From: Candidatus Poseidoniales archaeon
Lineage (GTDB): Archaea; Thermoplasmatota; Poseidoniia; Poseidoniales; Poseidoniaceae
Length of the DNA stretch: 64,000 bases
Reading direction: 5' to 3'
NCBI GenBank assembly: GCA_038110525.1
Contig: JAYNJV010000004.1
Coordinates: forward strand, 17,577 to 81,576
Under the pieces are notes generated by a model. It saw nothing but the letters and a program-made list of their open reading frames with translations. It was not told the DNA's origin and ran no database searches. Shown piece after piece: positions 10,247-18,318 of the stretch (position 1 is the stretch's first letter; each line of letters opens with the position of its first letter). Made by a program: the position numbers and the translations under genes.

Positions 10247-10266
10247 GACACACCGTGGGGTATGTC
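10247..10266. repeat. left boundary site GACACACCGTGGGGTATGTC
   Basis: 16/20 identical to the right site, including an 11-nt perfect run GACACACCGTG. Arms GACAC/ATGTC flank a 10-bp spacer. Confidence 0.6.
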
Positions 10267-10399: not shown

Positions 10400-11119
10400 A
10401 TGGCTAAGCAGAAACAAGCAGAACAATGCGTTCTCTATATTCGAGTCTCCTCCACTCGCCAAGCCGAAGACGGTGTGAGTATTGATGCCCAAATTGCGAG
10501 AGGCAAACTTCACGCACAATACATGAATTTTCTGCTGCCCGATGAAAATATTTTCATCGATGAGGGCGTAAGTGCCACAACCCCATTGTGGTCAAGACCT
10601 GCTGGTAAGCAGATGCGGGAGTTCATCACCAAGCAGAAGATTAAGCAGATTATTGCGTATCGAATGGACCGATTATTCAGAAGAACCGTGGATTGTCTTG
10701 CTACGGTTGAAGAATTGGATGATGAAGGCGTGAGTATTCAATTCTGTGAATCAGGTGGTCAGCCTCTCGATTTGTCGTCGGCTGTTGGACGTATGCTCAT
10801 CACTATCATGGCGGCCTTCGGTGAAATGGAGCGAAATCTCATCAGCGAGCGAACGTGTATGGCCATGCAACATCTCAAAGCGAATGGCAAGAGGTTCACT
10901 TACGACAAATATGGATGGGATGTTGATGAAGACAACAACTTCATTGAGAATGAAACAGAACAGTATTGGATTGAATACATCAAGGTGAGATACCATGAGG
11001 ATAACATCTCAATCTCACAAATTGCAAGAGAACTCAACACCTGTGGGGTTCCAACCAAGCGTAATGGAACCTGGTCTCACAAACAAGTCTCACGAATAAT
11101 CGCTCGCCAAAATGAATAA
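10400..11119 (+). CDS. small serine recombinase (resolvase/invertase family)
   Basis: N-terminal catalytic block VLYIRVSSTRQAEDGVSIDAQ (nucleophile Ser), then YRMDRLFRR and MERNLISERT blocks. C-terminal HTH-like ISISQIARELN..GVPT. The upstream 134 codons of ORF 9998..11119 were rejected. Confidence 0.85.
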   Translation: MAKQKQAEQCVLYIRVSSTRQAEDGVSIDAQIARGKLHAQYMNFLLPDENIFIDEGVSATTPLWSRPAGKQMREFITKQKIKQIIAYRMDRLFRRTVDCLATVEELDDEGVSIQFCESGGQPLDLSSAVGRMLITIMAAFGEMERNLISERTCMAMQHLKANGKRFTYDKYGWDVDEDNNFIENETEQYWIEYIKVRYHEDNISISQIARELNTCGVPTKRNGTWSHKQVSRIIARQNE

Positions 11120-13022
11120 CAAATTAGATCAATCCAGGTGTGTTGGTTTAATCGTGTCAGAAGATGCGTTGACTTTTACAATGACTCCAAAGAAAGGTTT
11201 CTTTGGCATTGGTAAATCAAAGGCAGAATGTTTCACATGTCCAAAGGCAATTTATCCATCATTAAAACAAGAGTTTGACTTATCAAAAACAAATCTCCAA
11301 CAAAGTGCAACATTGGTTATAGAAAACGAAGAGTACCCTTTTCTTGTTAGGCTTGTAAATATGAATAGGACTAAAGTTAGAAAATTACTTCCCTCAAAAT
11401 TGATTAAGCGGGAGACGATACAATTCTCTTGGAAATCAGACCCACAAACTCAATCAAAGATAAAGGAATATCTTGCAGGATCTTACTCCCAGCTCCTCGA
11501 TAATAATGAAGCCACTGTTGACCCAGTAGTGTTCAGATATTGCGGTAATAAAAGATTCAAACTTGAGCGAAAGGAGCCAGACGACAATAACTCGCAAGTT
11601 TTCAAGATTGGAATAGAGTATAGGGATACTGGAACGCCAACATCAAGTGAAGACGAGTTCATGGGTTGGATAAATATAGAAGGCAGTGGAATAAAGAATG
11701 CGGGAGGTATTCGTGGAATAAAGTCACTAAGAACTGGGCACTCTAGTTTGGATGCATTGATCTTGGTTACAAGTCATAAACCTGGAAATTTGCACAACCC
11801 TTGGGATGATAAAATAGATTCTAGCGATTCTACTATGTTCTATTGGGGAGATGCTAAACAACATTCTGATAAAGGTATGATGGATTTTCAGGGGAATAGG
11901 CATTTGATGGAAGCAAAGGAGAATCAAATACCAATATTACACTTCATAAGAAACAGACAAAGTTATGTGGAATTTTCAGGCATATATCTAATGCAAAACC
12001 TGGAAACAAAACAAATGACTGATCAAGGAAAAACGATTGAAAATCTGTTTGTTACCTTAGAACGGACCCAAGACAGAGCTGTCAACTGTGAATGGTTAAG
12101 AGATTGGAGAACCAAAGACGATTGGGCAGAGAGAATCAAGAATGGCCCCACAGACTGGTTATCGAGAATAAAACCTCAGAAAACAGGTTCAAATATTCAA
12201 TCAGAAGATCACATTGTCGCTAACATACCGAGCTCTTTTGTCCAGAGGAAAATCAAATTAGCCAATGATCGCGGTAATGGTGAAGCAAAACTGTATATTG
12301 GACCGGTTAAGAATAAAGAGGGGTATGAAAAATTCTTCTGTAATTGGCACCCAATGAATACTTACGAATTGGATCGGGTCAATTTACTACTTTACCTTCA
12401 AGACGTTGAACTGGAATTTTCCAAGCAAAGCAAATACAAGGCAGTAAGTAAGAAACTATACTACGAGTTGTTCAATAAAGTTGAGAGATTAGATGACAAT
12501 CGAATAGACTTGACTTACCATGAAGACAAGTCTAGATATTACATCCGTGGTACCAGCGAAGCTTGGAAATTGATTCGAAAAACCTGTTTACCACTAATTA
12601 CAACCCTGTTAATCGAAGTAAAATCGAGTAATAGTGATGGTTCATGCGATTATGTTGTGAGAATTTTATGCTCAGGCGAAGGAAGAGCGGCAAATCCAAC
12701 TAGTGGTATGAAGAGTAAATCGAGAAAAAAAAGGTCTCAAAGGAAAGCCAAACAGATTAAATTCAAGATGACACCTGAAGATAGCCGCACAATTAGTGAT
12801 GACTTAAAGGACAGAGTTTGGAGGCGTGATCAGGGAATGTGTCAAGCAAATTACAAACTTGATTCACGATTTGACAAGAATACAGGAGAGATTTGCGGTT
12901 CAAACGAGAATTTGGAATTCGATCATATCGTTCCATTTTCTAGGGGAGGAAAGACTACCTATAGGAACCTGCAATTGCTTTGCAGAACCCATAACCAGAT
13001 TAAATCAGATAGAGAAATCTAG
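11112..13022 (+). CDS. multidomain HNH endonuclease (unassigned N-terminus, SRA/YDG-like middle region, C-terminal HNH)
   Basis: C-terminal HNH: LEFDHIVPFSRGGKTTYRNLQLLCRTHNQIK. Residues ~185-300 (GIRGIKS...ALILVTS...NPWDDKIDSSDSTMFYWGDAKQ...FQGNRHLMEA...IPILHFIR) follow the block order of SRA/YDG 5mC-binding domains. ATGAATAA overlap with the recombinase stop codon. Confidence 0.7.
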   Translation: MNNKLDQSRCVGLIVSEDALTFTMTPKKGFFGIGKSKAECFTCPKAIYPSLKQEFDLSKTNLQQSATLVIENEEYPFLVRLVNMNRTKVRKLLPSKLIKRETIQFSWKSDPQTQSKIKEYLAGSYSQLLDNNEATVDPVVFRYCGNKRFKLERKEPDDNNSQVFKIGIEYRDTGTPTSSEDEFMGWINIEGSGIKNAGGIRGIKSLRTGHSSLDALILVTSHKPGNLHNPWDDKIDSSDSTMFYWGDAKQHSDKGMMDFQGNRHLMEAKENQIPILHFIRNRQSYVEFSGIYLMQNLETKQMTDQGKTIENLFVTLERTQDRAVNCEWLRDWRTKDDWAERIKNGPTDWLSRIKPQKTGSNIQSEDHIVANIPSSFVQRKIKLANDRGNGEAKLYIGPVKNKEGYEKFFCNWHPMNTYELDRVNLLLYLQDVELEFSKQSKYKAVSKKLYYELFNKVERLDDNRIDLTYHEDKSRYYIRGTSEAWKLIRKTCLPLITTLLIEVKSSNSDGSCDYVVRILCSGEGRAANPTSGMKSKSRKKRSQRKAKQIKFKMTPEDSRTISDDLKDRVWRRDQGMCQANYKLDSRFDKNTGEICGSNENLEFDHIVPFSRGGKTTYRNLQLLCRTHNQIKSDREI

Positions 13023-14611
13023 TTTTCCAATAACGCTGCCACAACACGTTCCAAGTCAGCCTGTTGGATTTGTCTTTCAGGCAATTCGTCAAACAACTCT
13101 TTGACCCTAATGGCTCTTTCCTTGAGGCTATTGAAAGTCTTGTCCTTAGCAGCAAGAACAGGAATTGCCTGCGCCATAATTGCGATAAGGACATCAACGA
13201 CGATTGAGTTGCCTGCTTGCCTGTAAAGCTGATTGTTTGACACAACCTGCTTGAATGAATCACAGAACCCCATCAGCCTCAAACACTCTGTAGGAGTTAA
13301 CATACGAATTCGACCTTCAGTAGTAACATAATTGTCGACACCTGCTCTGTGATTCTTGTGCATTGTTGATAGCAACGGCCTTGCAACCTCGAGGTCAATC
13401 TTAGGTATTGACCTGAAGCCTTTCGTGCCTGTTGCCATTACATATGTCTCAACTTTTTGGCTCAAGAAGTGCTTTTCATCAATCAGATGCTGGCCATTAT
13501 TTTCTTCTACGAAAACAAAGTCACCATGCCAATTGAACTGCTGATTTGCTTTCTGACAAAGCATGATTTCTCCGTCAATTTGAGTGTACTGTTTCCTGTG
13601 ATTTTTCTCCCAAGTCACAAAATCAACACCTTTGGTTCCGAGATAGAATTTACCTGCTACATTGTCCTCAAGGAAATCTTGCATCTTGCTTTTTAGTTCG
13701 ACAGGTTCCGGGAATGTGAAATCAGAACCGTCGTTAAGGAAGCCAACCACGAACACTCTTTGGCGATGTTGTGGAACTCCGTAATCCTTCGAATTAAGAA
13801 CTTCGTGGTGCCAGGTATAACCTGTATTATCAAAGCACTTTGAAATAACTTCCCACGTCTTTTTGTTATCGTGAGTGTACACGCCTTTGACGTTCTCCCA
13901 AATGAATATCTTAGGCTTTATTTCGTCGACCAATCGTACAAAATCATAGAATAGGGTCCCTCTAGCGTCATCAAATCCTTCTTGGTGACCAACGAAAGAG
14001 AAACTCTGACAGGGGCTCCCTCCAACAAATAGGTCGATTTCTCCTTCATACTGCTTACCGTCCAAAAATGAAACGTCTTTGTGGAAATGTTCAGAAGGGC
14101 AATCATAATTTGCAAGATATGATTCCTCGACGAATGCCTTTTTCCCACGCAACTCATAGAGTTCATTCACTAATTCACGTCTCAACTTTTGATCTGAAAT
14201 TGATTGAATACTCAATCTTAACACATCTTCGATAGAAGGAATATCGACTTCTTTTTCAGCTAGTAATGCATTGTGGAAATCACAAACTAACGATGTGTTT
14301 GAAAGTTTTAGGAAATCCTTTTCATTTTCAAAAGTGGTTTGCGGTTTGATACCGTGTAGAAACGATTTCTCATCTTGGCTACATCCATCCATCCAGCAGC
14401 AATTCAACTTGTGTAGTCCTTCAAATGAGGCTCCTGCATCGTCCAATTTAGCAAGCAGGTCTTTCAATTTTTTTACCGATGTTACTTTCTCTGCCCAATC
14501 GATATTACTGTTGTCACAAGCAAATGCAACTTCATAATCGATTCCCATTCTTTCGAGAGCATGTTCTATTGCCCCTATGCCTGAGAATACGGTTCCTAAT
14601 CTCATGGGCAT
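13019..14611 (-). CDS. DNA (cytosine-5)-methyltransferase with an enlarged motif I-IV spacer
   Basis: Motif I FSGIGA, motif IV GGSPCQSFS, VI ENVKG, VIII QHRQRVFVVGF, IX TPTECLRLMGF, X RQAGNSIVV. About 190 aa separate motif I from PCQ. Confidence 0.9.
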   Translation of the reverse strand: MPMRLGTVFSGIGAIEHALERMGIDYEVAFACDNSNIDWAEKVTSVKKLKDLLAKLDDAGASFEGLHKLNCCWMDGCSQDEKSFLHGIKPQTTFENEKDFLKLSNTSLVCDFHNALLAEKEVDIPSIEDVLRLSIQSISDQKLRRELVNELYELRGKKAFVEESYLANYDCPSEHFHKDVSFLDGKQYEGEIDLFVGGSPCQSFSFVGHQEGFDDARGTLFYDFVRLVDEIKPKIFIWENVKGVYTHDNKKTWEVISKCFDNTGYTWHHEVLNSKDYGVPQHRQRVFVVGFLNDGSDFTFPEPVELKSKMQDFLEDNVAGKFYLGTKGVDFVTWEKNHRKQYTQIDGEIMLCQKANQQFNWHGDFVFVEENNGQHLIDEKHFLSQKVETYVMATGTKGFRSIPKIDLEVARPLLSTMHKNHRAGVDNYVTTEGRIRMLTPTECLRLMGFCDSFKQVVSNNQLYRQAGNSIVVDVLIAIMAQAIPVLAAKDKTFNSLKERAIRVKELFDELPERQIQQADLERVVAALLEN

Positions 14612-14654
14612 CACACATTCCTGTCAATAAAGAGGGTTAATGACTCTTCTGGCT

Positions 14655-15437
14655 TCAATCTCCTCGTTTCTTTTTCCAAAAGTCATACTCTTCAGGTAGT
14701 GAGTCGTAAATCTGGTTGGCGCTCATTGAATACCAGTCTGCGGTTAGTTTCATCTGATTTCTCAAATCTGCAACTAATCGATTGATATTTCCAGGGCGAG
14801 TTTTTGTTGAATATCCTCGTCGCAAAGAACTGGATTCTTCATCCCAATATAGAAGACGTATGACTTCGATAAGATTCTTATTTGATATGACTTCGATTCT
14901 CCCTGCAGTTTGTTCAACGTCATCCCCCCATGAATCCAAGCTTCCCGAAAGTAAAACATCCGCCTGATGTTCAGAATTTTTGTTGTAATCATAAATCAAG
15001 TACGGCCCTAGTGCGTAGTGTCTTCTTCCACGCAATGATTGTTCACTGCCGCTGGAGATATATCTCGGTATGAATTTTGGATATTTCTCATACTGATCTT
15101 TCTTTTCCATCGGAACCTTTCTTCTTCCATTAGCGTCGACTGGACAAAATTGATCGAAATATCTCAAGACAATTGAGGCCCAAAAGTTCCTATTTTTCGA
15201 CACCATTTGCCTTGAAACTCCTGCCTCTTCGAGGACATGAACCAGATACTTTCCAAAAATTTGTTTGTTTTTGAATGTCATAGTCAATTGTAAATGAACC
15301 TTAGGTGAGAATTCTGTAGAATAGTTACGATCTGTTAACAGGTGAGTGGGTGCTGAACCACCTGATCTCGCACTTTCGTCCAAAAATGTTCTGAACATGT
15401 CAACACCTTCATCAGTCAAGATTCTAAACGCTACCAT
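14655..15437 (-). CDS. hypothetical protein C of the GHKL operon
   Basis: 260-aa ORF. Its ATG lies 1 nt after the stop codon of gene B and is preceded by AGAGGTGA (SD-like). No motif recognised. Confidence 0.6.
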   Translation of the reverse strand: MVAFRILTDEGVDMFRTFLDESARSGGSAPTHLLTDRNYSTEFSPKVHLQLTMTFKNKQIFGKYLVHVLEEAGVSRQMVSKNRNFWASIVLRYFDQFCPVDANGRRKVPMEKKDQYEKYPKFIPRYISSGSEQSLRGRRHYALGPYLIYDYNKNSEHQADVLLSGSLDSWGDDVEQTAGRIEVISNKNLIEVIRLLYWDEESSSLRRGYSTKTRPGNINRLVADLRNQMKLTADWYSMSANQIYDSLPEEYDFWKKKRGD

Positions 15438-15438
15438 T

Positions 15439-16251
15439 TCACTCACCTCTTTCGATGTTGATCAAATTAGAAGATAGAGCCTTACTTTCACTGTAATTTG
15501 CAACTACGTTCCCAATCCACTCTGATGCATCTTGTAAGAATTGAGCTTCATCAGTCTCATTTTCTTCATAAGATGGAGGCGTATTTTCTGGCAACAAGCT
15601 CCTTGCAAATCTTATCCAAGCACCTTTCCATGTTTGGTCTTCGTACCACCTGTACAAATCTGCCTTCATACTGATCATCAAGAAGTTCAACATACCTTCA
15701 AACACCGAAGGCATAATCATTCCCATAACCTTAGAGTCCTCTTGTAGTGGCTTGCCGGAATCCAATGCTACATCCCACCATTTTTGATTAAACACCAATT
15801 TTGGCAGTTCTATTTCTTCATAAACCTCTAATTTCCATGGGCGCTCTCCTAAATCTTCATAATCAGCAATAATTAGGCTTCTACGAGATTTCAAATCAGG
15901 TTGTGCGATTGAGACAGTATGCTTTTTACTAGCGGCCAAAAGATTGCCACCATCAACAACTCTTACAACAAAACTAGCACTTGTCCAAGAATCTAATTCA
16001 GATAATGAAACATTATCAGGACTTACAGGGTTTCCAAATGTGCCATAATCAAAGCGCATGAATGACATATCTTTTCCAACATCTACGAACACTTTGGCAT
16101 TAGGAGGAATTTGTTCCAGTGCAGGTTTCATGCTCCAATCGAATTCCATTTCCAACAATGGTGCTTTTTGATGAATTTTAGAAAGTCTAGCGTCTATACA
16201 CTCCTGTGTAATTAGCATTCGGCCAGTATAGTTGAAGTTTCTACTAGCCAT
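15439..16251 (-). CDS. hypothetical protein B of the GHKL operon
   Basis: 270-aa ORF. Its ATG overlaps the last codons of the GHKL gene by 8 nt and is preceded by AGAGGTGA. Beta-rich N-terminal half, helical C-terminal half. No motif recognised. Confidence 0.6.
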   Translation of the reverse strand: MASRNFNYTGRMLITQECIDARLSKIHQKAPLLEMEFDWSMKPALEQIPPNAKVFVDVGKDMSFMRFDYGTFGNPVSPDNVSLSELDSWTSASFVVRVVDGGNLLAASKKHTVSIAQPDLKSRRSLIIADYEDLGERPWKLEVYEEIELPKLVFNQKWWDVALDSGKPLQEDSKVMGMIMPSVFEGMLNFLMISMKADLYRWYEDQTWKGAWIRFARSLLPENTPPSYEENETDEAQFLQDASEWIGNVVANYSESKALSSNLINIERGE

Positions 16252-18226
16252 TTTCTTCACCTCTGATCAATCTTGGTTGTTTATGATGAACAAATAAATC
16301 TCTATCTACATCAAATCCAGTTACGTCGATACTATATTCTTCTGTTGGGCCAATCGCTCTGAAGACGATTGTATTTCCTTCAGATTTTTCAACAACAATT
16401 CCAGATTCTTCAATTGTAAGATTTTTTACATCAAAGTCAAAAGGTTTCCATTTCTTAATCGGATCTTTGCCATCATCTCGAGCATATGCCATTTTCACAG
16501 TAAATAAGTAATCTACTTGTAAATTTATATCCCCGTGAATTGAGAACCCTCCTGGTATTTTGTCCAGTTCCCACGAATGGTTTTTGCTCAAGTCTTCTGG
16601 AGGTGGTGGAGGCCCAATTATTGTGTCATCTTCATCATTAACTTCATCCTCAGTAGGATTCTTTATCTTCTTTTTCCGTTTCCTTTTCTTAGGCTTGCTA
16701 GAATTTTCAATTTCTTCGGATGGAAACCAATCGTCAATCCAATCTTTCTCAAATAGCTCTTTCTTCACTTGTAAATACTCAATTAATTGTGATGCTGATT
16801 GACGGAAAAATCTGATAATATCTCTTCCATATTTGTAAAGAGACTCAATCCTTGTTGGCCGATGTTCAGTATGTGCAACCTCTTCACTGGATCTTAGCAA
16901 TTCTTCTAATTCTCCATCTTCCGAAACAATTATGCAAACAAAACCGTTCTTCTTAGGTCTGTAATCAGTTTTTGGAACTGACAGATATCTTCTAATCCAG
17001 ATGGCATCAGATCTACCAAATGACTCATCCTTTTTCATCAAAATTGTGAATTTAGATAAACTTGGTTCTCGAGGTAGTCTTTTGTTTTCTAAATACTTGA
17101 AGATTGGAACTTCAATGTTTAACGCAACAGGTTTTCCAGAATCTAAACGGGATCTGATTGTATCATAACTGTCTTCAGGAATTAAATCCCTATTCCAAAC
17201 AATGTTTTCGTTTGAAGGCGAATCAAGCGAAAATTCATTTGCATTACCACTACTCCACCAATTAGCTAATTCGATTAGTCCATTCATGCATTTTCTGTTT
17301 GTTGTAGCCATTGCTCCAGCAGGCTTCCCTACCCAAGTCATTTTGTCACAGATTTTGTAAATAGTTTCAGAATTTATCACTATTTCATGACTTCCATCAA
17401 CTATAATTTCCAATTTTCCTTGGCAAATTGGCATAAAATAAGCACGAATCATACTTTCAATAATTTCCTCGTCCCTGTAAACTCTCTTGGGATATGGAAT
17501 TATCACTGACAACCCTAATTCGTCTGTTCTGCTGAGATTGAAATCTTTGCTAATTATTTTGAATAATTCTTCCGAATCCGATGGCATGATACGTAAAACT
17601 TCGCCATTATCATCTACAACAACATTACCAAAATCGCCATAGGGGAAGTAAATTTGATCTCCAATCTCATGCATTTTGCCGACCGCATTTCCAAAAATTT
17701 TCACTCCATTTCTGTCTCTCGATACAGAAAAGAAGGAATTTATTTCCGACGCATTTGCGAAAGCATGTTTCCCGTAACCATACGATCCACCACGTTTTGT
17801 GGCGTTAGAATTTGTTCGATTTGTGTTTCTATGGAACCAATAAAACCTATTGTCAGGAGCATCTCCTCCAAGGCCATGATAACTTGCATCACCCTCTAAT
17901 CCCTTTGTTCCAAAATCTTCTACTACAACGTAATTCATGGGGGAATTGAGATTTGGGGTTGAAAATCCAGATTCGTTTAGATGATGAAATAATCCATTGA
18001 AGTATTTCTTTGCCATATCAGCAGACATCGCATTATTTCCAGTATTTACTGAGATCCTCATTCTGACCTTGGATCTATTATCAGAAGCATCAAGACTGTT
18101 CTGAGTTGATTCTCTAATCACCGCTCCCAAGGGAGGTAGATTTTCGAAAAGAATACCCTCGGCAGGATCTACGTTCCTGTCCCTTTCTCTCTTTGCAACA
18201 AAATGCCAACTTGGAATCATAACCAT
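16244..18226 (-). CDS. GHKL-superfamily (Bergerat fold, MORC/MutL/Hsp90-like) ATPase with a long unassigned C-terminal region
   Basis: N-box VIRESTQNSLDA (E-x3-N-x2-D-A), G1 box VVEDFGTKGL (D-x-G-x-G), G2 box KRGGSYGYGKHAF. Later a basic linker SSKPKKRKRKKKIK, then GPPPPPE, then a ~110-aa beta-rich tail. Start at ATG 18226 (MVMIPSW), preceded by a G6 run. Confidence 0.75.
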   Translation of the reverse strand: MVMIPSWHFVAKRERDRNVDPAEGILFENLPPLGAVIRESTQNSLDASDNRSKVRMRISVNTGNNAMSADMAKKYFNGLFHHLNESGFSTPNLNSPMNYVVVEDFGTKGLEGDASYHGLGGDAPDNRFYWFHRNTNRTNSNATKRGGSYGYGKHAFANASEINSFFSVSRDRNGVKIFGNAVGKMHEIGDQIYFPYGDFGNVVVDDNGEVLRIMPSDSEELFKIISKDFNLSRTDELGLSVIIPYPKRVYRDEEIIESMIRAYFMPICQGKLEIIVDGSHEIVINSETIYKICDKMTWVGKPAGAMATTNRKCMNGLIELANWWSSGNANEFSLDSPSNENIVWNRDLIPEDSYDTIRSRLDSGKPVALNIEVPIFKYLENKRLPREPSLSKFTILMKKDESFGRSDAIWIRRYLSVPKTDYRPKKNGFVCIIVSEDGELEELLRSSEEVAHTEHRPTRIESLYKYGRDIIRFFRQSASQLIEYLQVKKELFEKDWIDDWFPSEEIENSSKPKKRKRKKKIKNPTEDEVNDEDDTIIGPPPPPEDLSKNHSWELDKIPGGFSIHGDINLQVDYLFTVKMAYARDDGKDPIKKWKPFDFDVKNLTIEESGIVVEKSEGNTIVFRAIGPTEEYSIDVTGFDVDRDLFVHHKQPRLIRGEENG

Positions 18227-18257: not shown

Positions 18258-18264
18258 TTATATA
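18258..18264 (-). promoter_or_regulatory. TATA-box-like element upstream of the GHKL operon
   Basis: TATATAA on the minus strand, about 32 nt upstream of the ATG at 18226. Sequence resemblance only. Confidence 0.25.
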
Positions 18265-18298: not shown

Positions 18299-18318
18299 GA
18301 CACACCGTGCAGAGTGTC
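18299..18318. repeat. right boundary site GACACACCGTGCAGAGTGTC
   Basis: Perfect 5-bp dyad arms GACAC/GTGTC around a 10-bp spacer. Same orientation as the left site. Sits between the GHKL operon promoter and the trxB promoter. Confidence 0.6.

Follow-up and report, generated by a model that had tools for sequence, protein, structure and literature searches.

We describe a three-gene cassette, here called A-B-C, in a stretch of 64,000 nucleotides (nt) from a Candidatus Poseidoniales (Marine Group II) archaeon (contig JAYNJV010000004.1, positions 17,577 to 81,576; hereafter the window). Its kind is known from comparative genomics, and the cassette itself is an unnamed, widespread three-gene module in which an ATPase of the GHKL class (A) is joined by two orphan partner families (B and C). 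We observed that A, B and C co-evolve, and that in many phyla they behave as a single unit in inheritance, spacing and order. The genomic context of the cassette points to a probable role in defence. We tentatively favor, rating it just short of evenly balanced, the view that A-B-C could form the ATP-driven half, the one responsible for restriction, of a DNA-directed defence module of paraMORC type that is linked to cytosine methylation.

The three genes are tightly coupled in the window and in the family at large. A preliminary description of the locus had reported three coupled genes on the minus strand, with an 8-nt overlap between A and B and a 1-nt gap between B and C, and this is the arrangement of the open reading frames (ORFs), all of which are intact (Table 1). 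The start codon of B lies within ATGGCTAG, which creates the overlap with A, and a GAGGTGA Shine-Dalgarno-like motif is present 5' of both B and C. A TATA-like box (TATATAA, 18258-18264) is located approximately 32 nt 5' of the A start codon, inside the island that carries the cassette. The same coupling is seen across the family, where the A/B junction falls within -30 to +20 nt in 77/80 loci (a classical 4-nt overlap in 32 of these) and the B/C junction does so in 65/72.

Relatives of A are numerous and patchily spread. There are 428 detectable homologs, ranging from 99% identity in Poseidoniales down to 26-31%, still over the full length, in bacteria; none of them has an annotation or a Pfam domain. 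The closest relatives occur in metagenome-assembled genomes of Candidatus Poseidoniales/Poseidoniaceae, among them one that encodes a 100%-identical C. When one genome per species was scanned, at least 412 genomes encoded an A relative, distributed over about ten bacterial phyla and the Poseidoniales archaea, mainly in Acidobacteriota, Planctomycetota, Pseudomonadota, Nitrospirota, Verrucomicrobiota and Poseidoniales. We took 80 loci from Acidobacteriota, Planctomycetota, several Pseudomonadota classes, Nitrospirota, Verrucomicrobiota, Bacteroidota, Chloroflexota, Desulfobacterota and Poseidoniales, and the cassette was surveyed by running phmmer with B and C of the window against all ORFs of 85 loci. 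B was present directly downstream of A in 81 of the 85, and C in 73. The full A-B-C was found in 72, always in the order A, B, C and on one strand, and the incomplete cassettes were mostly those at contig edges. The expected linkage of the three genes is thus conserved across about ten bacterial phyla and Poseidoniales, and their evolutionary distances co-vary, with Spearman coefficients of 0.77-0.82 for the pairwise A, B and C distances across 65 loci. A and C appear to be under purifying selection, as the ratios of nonsynonymous to synonymous substitution rates (dN/dS) between the window and the Ca. Poseidonia alphae copy (locus L001) are 0.06 and 0.08, respectively; for B the ratio is not computable because dS is saturated.

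Protein A has the four ATP-binding motifs of the GHKL ATPases in order, together with a Bergerat fold. The Bergerat-fold boxes proposed for it at the outset were found at residues 36-47 (VIRESTQNSLDA), 101-110 (VVEDFGTKGL) and 146-156 (GGSYGYGKHAF), and their key residues do not vary across 114 homologs. Motif I comprises E39/N43/D46, motif II D104-x-G-x-x-G109, motif III G147-x-x-G150-x-G152-K153 and motif IV G238-L-S240. Among the 114 sequences, which are 25-87% identical, E39, N43, D46, D104, G109, G112, G147, G150, G152, K153 and G238 are invariant, while G106 and S240 are nearly so, a conservation that, judged from the alignment, is far beyond chance at such identities.

We built an AlphaFold2 model of A from the 114 homologs (mean predicted local distance difference test score, pLDDT, 87.6) and compared it with known structures using Foldseek. 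The matches were to topoisomerase VI-B (9o8p_B, E = 1.2e-11; 1mx0, E = 2.4e-9), ParE 43 kDa (E = 5e-7), the African swine fever virus (ASFV) topoisomerase ATPase (E = 6e-5), MORC3 (E = 1.3e-4), GyrB 24 kDa (E = 1.3e-4) and MutL N40 (E = 0.02), with Foldseek probabilities of 0.82-1.00, and the top matches were chains that comprise a GHKL domain plus a transducer (1mx0, 4url 43K, 5ix2). Because of these matches to topoisomerase VI-B, ParE, MORC3, GyrB and MutL, we identify A as a GHKL ATPase with a transducer. As in the transducer-bearing subgroup, an S5-like domain follows the GHKL domain, and a basic residue in it, R412, is invariant. The transducer also carries an invariant E448-x3-H452 motif, which reads SSEEVAHTEH in the window and GDSENPAHTEW in the family consensus.

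The initial view that A ceases to resemble the known GHKL families after about 200 residues held for sequence and failed for structure. Searches of Pfam, NCBIfam, PHROGs and the PDB sequences with A, both as a single protein and as a family profile, gave no meaningful match; none of 23 A homologs scanned singly against Pfam (E up to 0.05) matched a GHKL model; and the A profile, compared with E. coli MutL by hhalign, matched it in motif I alone, at 5.8% probability. By structure, in contrast, the likeness to topoisomerase VI-B, ParE and MORC3 over the GHKL domain and the transducer extends to about residue 480. The C-terminus is built as first described, with a basic tract (KKRKRKKK, residues 513-520), a proline tract (PPPPP, residues 539-543) and a beta-rich tail whose strands the AlphaFold2 model places at 550-654. 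Conserved in this tail are GGF, Y581, D597-F598 and G637-F-D..RD, and Foldseek gave only weak matches for it (E = 5e-3 to 6e-2), namely chitin-binding, Ig-like and CP2-type domains. We also considered A-B-C as a histidine-kinase two-component system and rejected it: DHp and REC domains are lacking, and the structural matches are to topoisomerase and MORC ATPases.

The two partners resisted assignment, as had been anticipated. No matches were obtained with B and C of the window in Pfam, NCBIfam, PHROGs, PADLOC or PDB sequence searches. Scanning 75 B and 72 C homologs singly against Pfam gave no consistent match, and the one-by-one scans of the 23 A, 75 B and 72 C homologs returned scattered, chance-like single matches only. 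The B and C family profiles found no meaningful match, and no topoisomerase chain, in the PDB; hhalign comparisons of B with C and of B with A revealed no relationship among the three proteins; and the library scans detected no toxin-like, transmembrane or nucleotide-signalling domain in B or C. Protein B is 27% identical to a Desulfobacterota homolog (E = 2e-23). Near its N-terminus lies a conserved NYTGR motif; R66 and G70 do not vary, and other conserved polar residues are few. Part of the sequence has a pattern suggestive of beta strands, and the C-terminal half is rich in Trp. In C, residues G11, W86, H140, Q228 and D234 are invariant and R180, R220 and E250 nearly invariant, and these conserved residues suggest a catalytic or ligand-binding pocket. 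An AlphaFold2 model of C built from 29 sequences (pLDDT 85; predicted template modeling score, pTM, 0.85) had no Foldseek match in the PDB (best E = 4.2, TM-score at most 0.17) or in BFVD (best E = 1.3). The predicted fold is thus apparently new.

The C family is also large: in a library of 1.84 billion proteins it comprises 1174 cluster representatives at 50% identity, nearly all of them stand-alone proteins of about 240 amino acids. Among the 150 best C relatives a few are longer (P0224, P0254, P0250). Two of these end in a zinc ribbon that a linker of about 140 residues separates from the rest, and one relative of 548 residues carries an extension of about 300 residues without a Pfam domain. 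These longer forms gave no clue to function.

To describe the genomic context we clustered all flanking ORFs and confirmed representatives with Pfam, counting as fully flanked the 47 loci in which 2.5 kb or more of sequence is available on each side. The frequent neighbors are limited to a C5 cytosine DNA methyltransferase of the Dcm type (24 loci) and Vsr (18 loci). Of the fully flanked loci, 20 carry Dcm at a distance of up to 3 kb and 17 carry Vsr at up to 4 kb; Dcm, mostly accompanied by Vsr, is the commonest neighbor. It occurs in three arrangements: co-oriented with the cassette and immediately upstream, co-oriented and immediately downstream, or in a convergent Vsr-Dcm pair that abuts C. 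Its linkage follows the A phylogeny, nearest neighbors agreeing in state in 34/41 cases where 20.6 would be expected; Dcm is almost wholly missing from one large A subclade, and the deepest A lineages are mostly Dcm-linked. The persistence of Dcm across the three arrangements and in the most divergent A lineages argues for a functional tie rather than a product of chance. The linked methylases themselves could be ruled out as one dedicated subfamily, their motif spacing and lengths being heterogeneous.

Rarer recurrent neighbors are SNF2-PLD helicase-nucleases (about 7 loci), EcoRII-C (3) and Eco57I-type methylase-nucleases (4). The suggestion that defence-type genes accompany the cassette was therefore borne out for Dcm, Vsr, SNF2-PLD, EcoRII and Eco57I-like genes, which are enriched beside it, while many other neighbors are housekeeping genes. 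Pfam and PADLOC scans of 134 flanking proteins likewise gave restriction and abortive-infection genes (type I restriction-modification (R-M), AbiE, PIN and candidate defence genes) mixed with housekeeping genes, a mixture from which no enrichment rate is derivable.

In some loci an extra conserved gene is located directly upstream of A, on the same strand and 0-76 nt away (L006 6940-7986, L046 6782-7993, L011, L022, L064, L081). These genes fall into two small clusters, with proteins of about 350-400 and about 210-490 residues, and the representative of the second cluster has no Pfam match. They may be subtype-specific fourth components.

We then asked how the trio relates to described systems. 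It matches no named one among those compared, in agreement with the preliminary description: PADLOC 2.0 gives a partial match of PDC-M33A to A, and our search of the full-text literature found no description of the trio and no name for it. Mza, a GHKL-containing defence system with experimental support, has five genes. PDC-M33A, a PADLOC candidate, is the sole library model that matches A (E = 5.4e-12 with the window protein and 3e-18 with a bacterial homolog); no other PADLOC model, in a set that probably includes Mza, matched A at E up to 0.1. The profile, with 627 positions, is similar in length to A, but the match covers only its first ~280 positions, the GHKL domain, at residues 39-304 of A, and B and C of the window and of three homologous loci match no PADLOC model at E up to 0.1. 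Since the match is limited to the GHKL domain and B and C are unmatched, we take PDC-M33A to be a sister GHKL family from another system. No paper mentioning PDC-M33 was found in the literature search.

That GHKL ATPases of the MORC and paraMORC groups occur in R-M-like operons was already recognized, as the preliminary description noted: Iyer, Abhiman and Aravind (2008, PMC2292703) assigned them to R-M systems from genomic context. Like A, these ATPases begin with a GHKL domain whose ATP motifs are intact and continue with an S5/transducer domain, and like the A family they are sporadic across bacteria and archaea (PMC2292703). Cytosine methylases, Vsr, SNF2 helicases, HNH and EcoRII-like nucleases are common to the two neighborhoods, and the surroundings of A-B-C are the same contextual network as the one used for the MORC/paraMORC assignment (PMC2292703). 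The nearest group may be paraMORC2, for which an ExxxH motif is described (PMC2292703); A has the invariant E448 and H452 in this spacing late in its transducer. However, paraMORC2 is reported from cyanobacteria and Gram-positives, a taxonomic range unlike that of A, and the accessible text of the paper makes no mention of the obligate B and C partners (PMC2292703). Concerning MORC in the sense of the same authors, the MORC-specific S5 motif, GhXhhpXXRhl, was not found by eye in the A consensus; moreover, none of the 23 A homologs matched HATPase_c or HATPase_c_3, and MORC3 is a weaker structural match to A (1.3e-4) than topoisomerase VI-B.

Two further GHKL systems invite comparison. Bellieny-Rabelo et al. 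(2021, PMC8011034) described HEF_HK/Response_reg_2, a GHKL protein with a linked partner, and suggested that it is related to paraMORCs; its genes frequently have a C5-methylase upstream and Vsr as the adjacent downstream gene. The likeness to A-B-C lies in the GHKL protein, in the tightly linked partner of unknown function and in the nearby C5-methylase and Vsr (PMC8011034), but HEF_HK/Response_reg_2 has two components where A-B-C has three, and PF19191, PF19192 and HATPase_c_3 match none of the 23 A, 75 B and 72 C homologs. VcSduA, a GHKL-Shedu protein of the paraMORC3 group, is an experimentally validated anti-phage system in which the ATPase glutamate and the nuclease are both required (PMC12137116). 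It shares with A-B-C, whose defence role is predicted from context, a GHKL ATPase within an anti-phage system; in contrast, it is a single protein with a DUF4263 PD-(D/E)xK nuclease (PMC12137116), which A lacks, the C-terminus of A being a beta-sandwich.

By structure, A is closest to topoisomerase VI-B, the best match over the GHKL domain and the transducer (E = 1.2e-11 to 2e-7, probability 1.00), which is also encoded with a partner subunit. Yet the sequence identity is approximately 8-12%, the global TM-scores are 0.25-0.33, and A has an additional basic linker and beta-sandwich tail. Moreover, A-B-C includes no Top6A-like partner, as C has no PDB match and the B and C profiles found no topoisomerase chain, and the context of the cassette is of the restriction type, not housekeeping. 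MutL resembles A in its GHKL-plus-transducer fold, in a nearly identical motif I (RESTQNSLDA in A, KELVENSLDA in MutL) and in its association with Vsr. It differs in its partners and in its C-terminal dimerisation/endonuclease domain, which A does not have.

In topoisomerase VI-B, GyrB/ParE, MutL and MORC, ATP binding dimerises the GHKL heads into a clamp that captures DNA. We hypothesize that A would work in the same way, ATP binding bringing two A molecules together through their GHKL heads and N-terminal strap to form a DNA-capturing clamp, with the basic linker and the beta-sandwich tail helping to hold DNA or partner proteins. B and C would be made in step with A and would bind it, and the transducer of A would pass its nucleotide state on to them. 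With its cluster of invariant His, Asp, Gln and Arg residues, C is the best candidate for a catalytic or DNA-discriminating subunit, whereas B is more likely an adaptor because it has few conserved polar residues. Where Dcm is linked, as in the window, methylation would mark self, and unmethylated incoming DNA would be cut or disabled; the SRA-like/HNH enzyme of the archaeal island would cover DNA modified in other sequence contexts, and the whole set would travel on the serine-recombinase island. This proposal is supported by the intact ATP site, the fixed cassette, the Dcm, Vsr and restriction neighbors, the PDC-M33A match and the paraMORC2-like ExxxH, and it agrees with the part in R-M systems that Iyer et al. 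(2008, PMC2292703) proposed for MORC and paraMORC ATPases.

Several observations weigh against it. No nuclease, helicase or other effector fold was recognized in A and C by model or in B by sequence. Of the fully flanked loci, 27 of 47 have no Dcm within 3 kb, so that self/non-self discrimination by Dcm cannot be general. In three loci Dcm-Vsr is accompanied by an EcoRII-type endonuclease of its own, and the archaeal islands carry an HNH gene; in such EcoRII-bearing or HNH-bearing loci the methylase may belong to a separate, adjoining R-M system. Finally, the neighbors other than Dcm and Vsr are heterogeneous and include seryl-tRNA synthetase, gyrase A, polyprenyl synthetase, transporters and metabolic genes.

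The first two of these loci-based points, the Dcm-less majority (with the large A subclade in which Dcm is almost wholly absent) and the three loci where Dcm-Vsr has its own EcoRII nuclease, would also be expected if A-B-C were a methylation-independent sensor-effector system of the abortive-infection type. Here A would be an ATP-dependent conformational switch, triggered by a phage protein or by DNA of abnormal structure, upon which B and/or C would be released as toxic effectors; the methylases would belong to neighboring R-M systems. GHKL domains control attached effectors elsewhere, for example in VcSduA (PMC12137116), and C has its conserved polar cluster on an unmatched fold. We nevertheless consider such a system unlikely: Dcm adjoins the cassette in three arrangements and in the most divergent A lineages, and the domains one might expect of a released effector (toxin-like, transmembrane or nucleotide-signalling) were not detected in B or C.

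Restriction coupled to methylation also has to be set against a role in genome maintenance. MutL stimulates Vsr, and A shares with MutL the GHKL-plus-transducer fold. A MutL-like A, with B and C, might therefore aid Vsr at the T:G mismatches that arise from deamination of 5-methylcytosine, traveling with a mobile Dcm-Vsr into hosts whose MutL is incompatible or missing. The presence of Vsr in 17/47 loci, often abutting C, would fit such an accessory, and MutL with its nuclease partners, including Vsr in very-short-patch repair, is discussed in PMC2292703. This is improbable, however, as most loci, the island of the window included, have no Vsr; A is structurally nearer to topoisomerase VI-B and ParE than to MutL (E = 1e-11 vs 2e-2); SNF2-PLD, EcoRII and Eco57I-like restriction genes are further companions of the cassette; and its patchy, island-borne spread is typical of conflict systems. 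Least probable of all, and very unlikely, is a divergent type IIB-topoisomerase-like machine for DNA topology or mobile-element maintenance, with A as a topoisomerase VI-B-like ATP gate and B and/or C as a novel DNA-cleaving or gating partner in place of Top6A, since the topoisomerase VI-B subunits that are the best structural matches of A (9o8p_B and 1mx0) and a partner coupling that recalls Top6B/Top6A are offset by a C without a Toprim or winged-helix 5Y-CAP fold or any PDB match, a B without a conserved acidic DxD-type or tyrosine signature, and a sporadic spread and R-M-type neighborhood unexpected for a housekeeping topoisomerase.

In the window the cassette belongs to a discrete island (Table 1). 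The low-GC, recombinase-bearing island of the preliminary description, with a C5-methyltransferase beside the trio and an HNH gene opposite, is evident from the GC profile (0.365-0.42 across 11-18 kb vs about 0.45-0.50 in the flanks) and from Pfam matches. The methyltransferase gene starts ~40 nt downstream of C on the same strand and is likely both the fourth gene of the operon and its self-protection component. The gene for the SRA-like/HNH protein is convergent with it, their 3' ends sharing 4 nt, and this protein matches the PADLOC methyl-directed REase model (E = 5.9e-8). A nuclease of the methyl-directed type (AspBHI_N plus HNH) lying tail-to-tail with a C5-methyltransferase seems self-incompatible unless the specificities differ; in the Ca. 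Poseidonia alphae island the corresponding gene (L001 15199-16893) has Mrr_N in place of the reader domain and keeps the HNH.

Table 1 Features of the A-B-C island in the window (positions are those of the window).
Feature	Coordinates	Strand	Description
Gene A	16244..18226	-	660 amino acids; ATG 18226, TAG 16246-16244; GHKL ATPase with transducer, disordered basic linker and C-terminal beta-sandwich
A residues 1-246	17489..18226	-	N-terminal strap and GHKL ATP-binding domain; motifs I-IV
A residues ~247-500	16727..17488	-	Transducer (S5-like); AlphaFold2 secondary structure, Foldseek chains, invariant columns
A residues ~501-548	16583..16726	-	Low-confidence linker, presumably disordered; pLDDT <50 for 506-541 and 543-545
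A residues ~549-660	16247..16582	-	C-terminal all-beta (sandwich-like) domain; strands 550-654, pLDDT >90
Gene B	15439..16251	-	270 amino acids; ATG 16251, TGA 15441-15439; partner protein without recognized family
Gene C	14655..15437	-	260 amino acids; ATG 15437, stop codon ends at 14655; predicted alpha+beta fold
C5 cytosine DNA methyltransferase (Dcm type)	13019..14614	-	PF00145 E = 2.1e-70; TIGR00675 E = 2.4e-72
AspBHI_N (SRA-like, of the methylcytosine-reading type) + C-terminal HNH protein	11112..13022	+	636 amino acids; PF18062 E = 4.1e-15; PF01844 E = 5.5e-10
Serine recombinase (resolvase/invertase type, Recombinase domain)	10400..11119	+	PF00239 E = 3.2e-31; PF07508 E = 2.8e-6
Left island boundary repeat	10247..10266		20 nt; imperfect direct repeat with exact 11-nt core GACACACCGTG; candidate att site
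Right island boundary repeat	18299..18318		20 nt; second copy, core GACACACCGTG

The island spans 8.07 kb, and its boundary repeats bracket exactly the recombinase, the SRA-like/HNH gene, Dcm, C, B and A. The repeat with the core GACACACCGTG has just two occurrences in the window at up to one mismatch, the right copy being situated between a flanking thioredoxin-reductase-like gene and the TATA-like box of A. The same core also flanks the homologous island of Ca. Poseidonia alphae (L001 9920 and 17742), just outside the A start and the recombinase end, and there the adjoining genes are wholly different from those of the window. Because the core flanks homologous islands at unrelated genomic sites, we conclude that the 8-kb serine-recombinase island moves the cassette, and the repeats suggest themselves as the attachment (att) sites of its recombinase. 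The recombinase ORF as first listed (373 residues from 9998) is over-extended: the resolvase domain begins at residue 145, the homolog in L001 has 285 residues, and the start is probably Met134 of the long ORF, at 10400. Placed there, it leaves the left repeat upstream of the likely recombinase start and outside the recombinase coding sequence. The island of the window was assembled from another sample too, and an exact-protein look-up of the flanking thioredoxin-reductase-like gene, intended as a test for an empty site, found no record. The recombinase was rejected as a component of the system itself, as the bacterial loci are without it.

Along the operon, divergence between the two archaeal islands climbs steadily (window 13019-18226 vs L001 10001-15202), the amino acid identity falling from 95% in Dcm through 85% in C and 81% in B to 69% in A, with dN/dS well below 1 wherever computable. 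Either A is evolving faster, perhaps in an arms race, or the island is a recombinant mosaic.

Taken together, the patchy spread, the unrelated insertion neighbors and the repeat-bounded island in two contexts fit horizontal transfer. The cassette is essentially chromosomal, since A relatives were found in just 2 of 2.9 million viral contigs (one with the full A-B-C) and 2 of 72,556 plasmids, and as 1 partial match among phage records. The full viral-collection cassette (L086 259-3748) lies on the 12.7-kb IMG/VR contig IMGVR_UViG_3300011814_000013, which could be prophage-borne or misclassified. On the 1.3-Mb plasmid pRlX5 of Rhizobium leguminosarum TP16 (NZ_CP140867.1; L088 5890-13330), a complete A-B-C is present with Dcm 2.6 kb downstream; the PLSDB record carries no annotation, and the strain is a cultured, genetically tractable carrier. 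A bacterial locus (L002 11899-14747) has a disrupted cassette, in which B is cut to 156 residues and a Transposase_mut gene lies between the B fragment and C; around it is a defence island that includes an Eco57I-like enzyme, AbiEii and a SNF2-PLD protein.

To our knowledge, few GHKL-containing defence proteins have been validated (VcSduA, Mza), and these differ from A-B-C. GHKL ATPases resembling MORC and topoisomerases have been predicted to act in prokaryotic restriction systems since 2008, and our literature search found no experimental work on prokaryotic MORC/paraMORC operons. A-B-C offers a well-defined test case, with three genes (four with the methylase), at least 412 species genomes and all ATPase residues intact, and with both partner families absent from Pfam, NCBIfam, PHROGs and PADLOC. 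In its boldest form, which we regard as doubtful, A-B-C might be an unrecognized, widespread prokaryotic immune system in which a topoisomerase VI-B/MORC-like ATP clamp and two subunits of new fold, unaided by a canonical nuclease or helicase, destroy or silence DNA not bearing the host's cytosine methylation. If this were true, C would be the founding member of a new class of DNA-targeting effectors or methylation readers, and the system would be the closest prokaryotic functional analogue of the eukaryotic MORC-type silencing of foreign DNA. Characterization could reveal how a GHKL clamp is coupled to the discrimination of foreign DNA, could assign a function to two sizeable orphan families and could illuminate the ancestry of eukaryotic MORC silencing. 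For the uncultured Marine Group II archaea, A-B-C is among the few candidate antiviral modules carried on a discrete mobile island.

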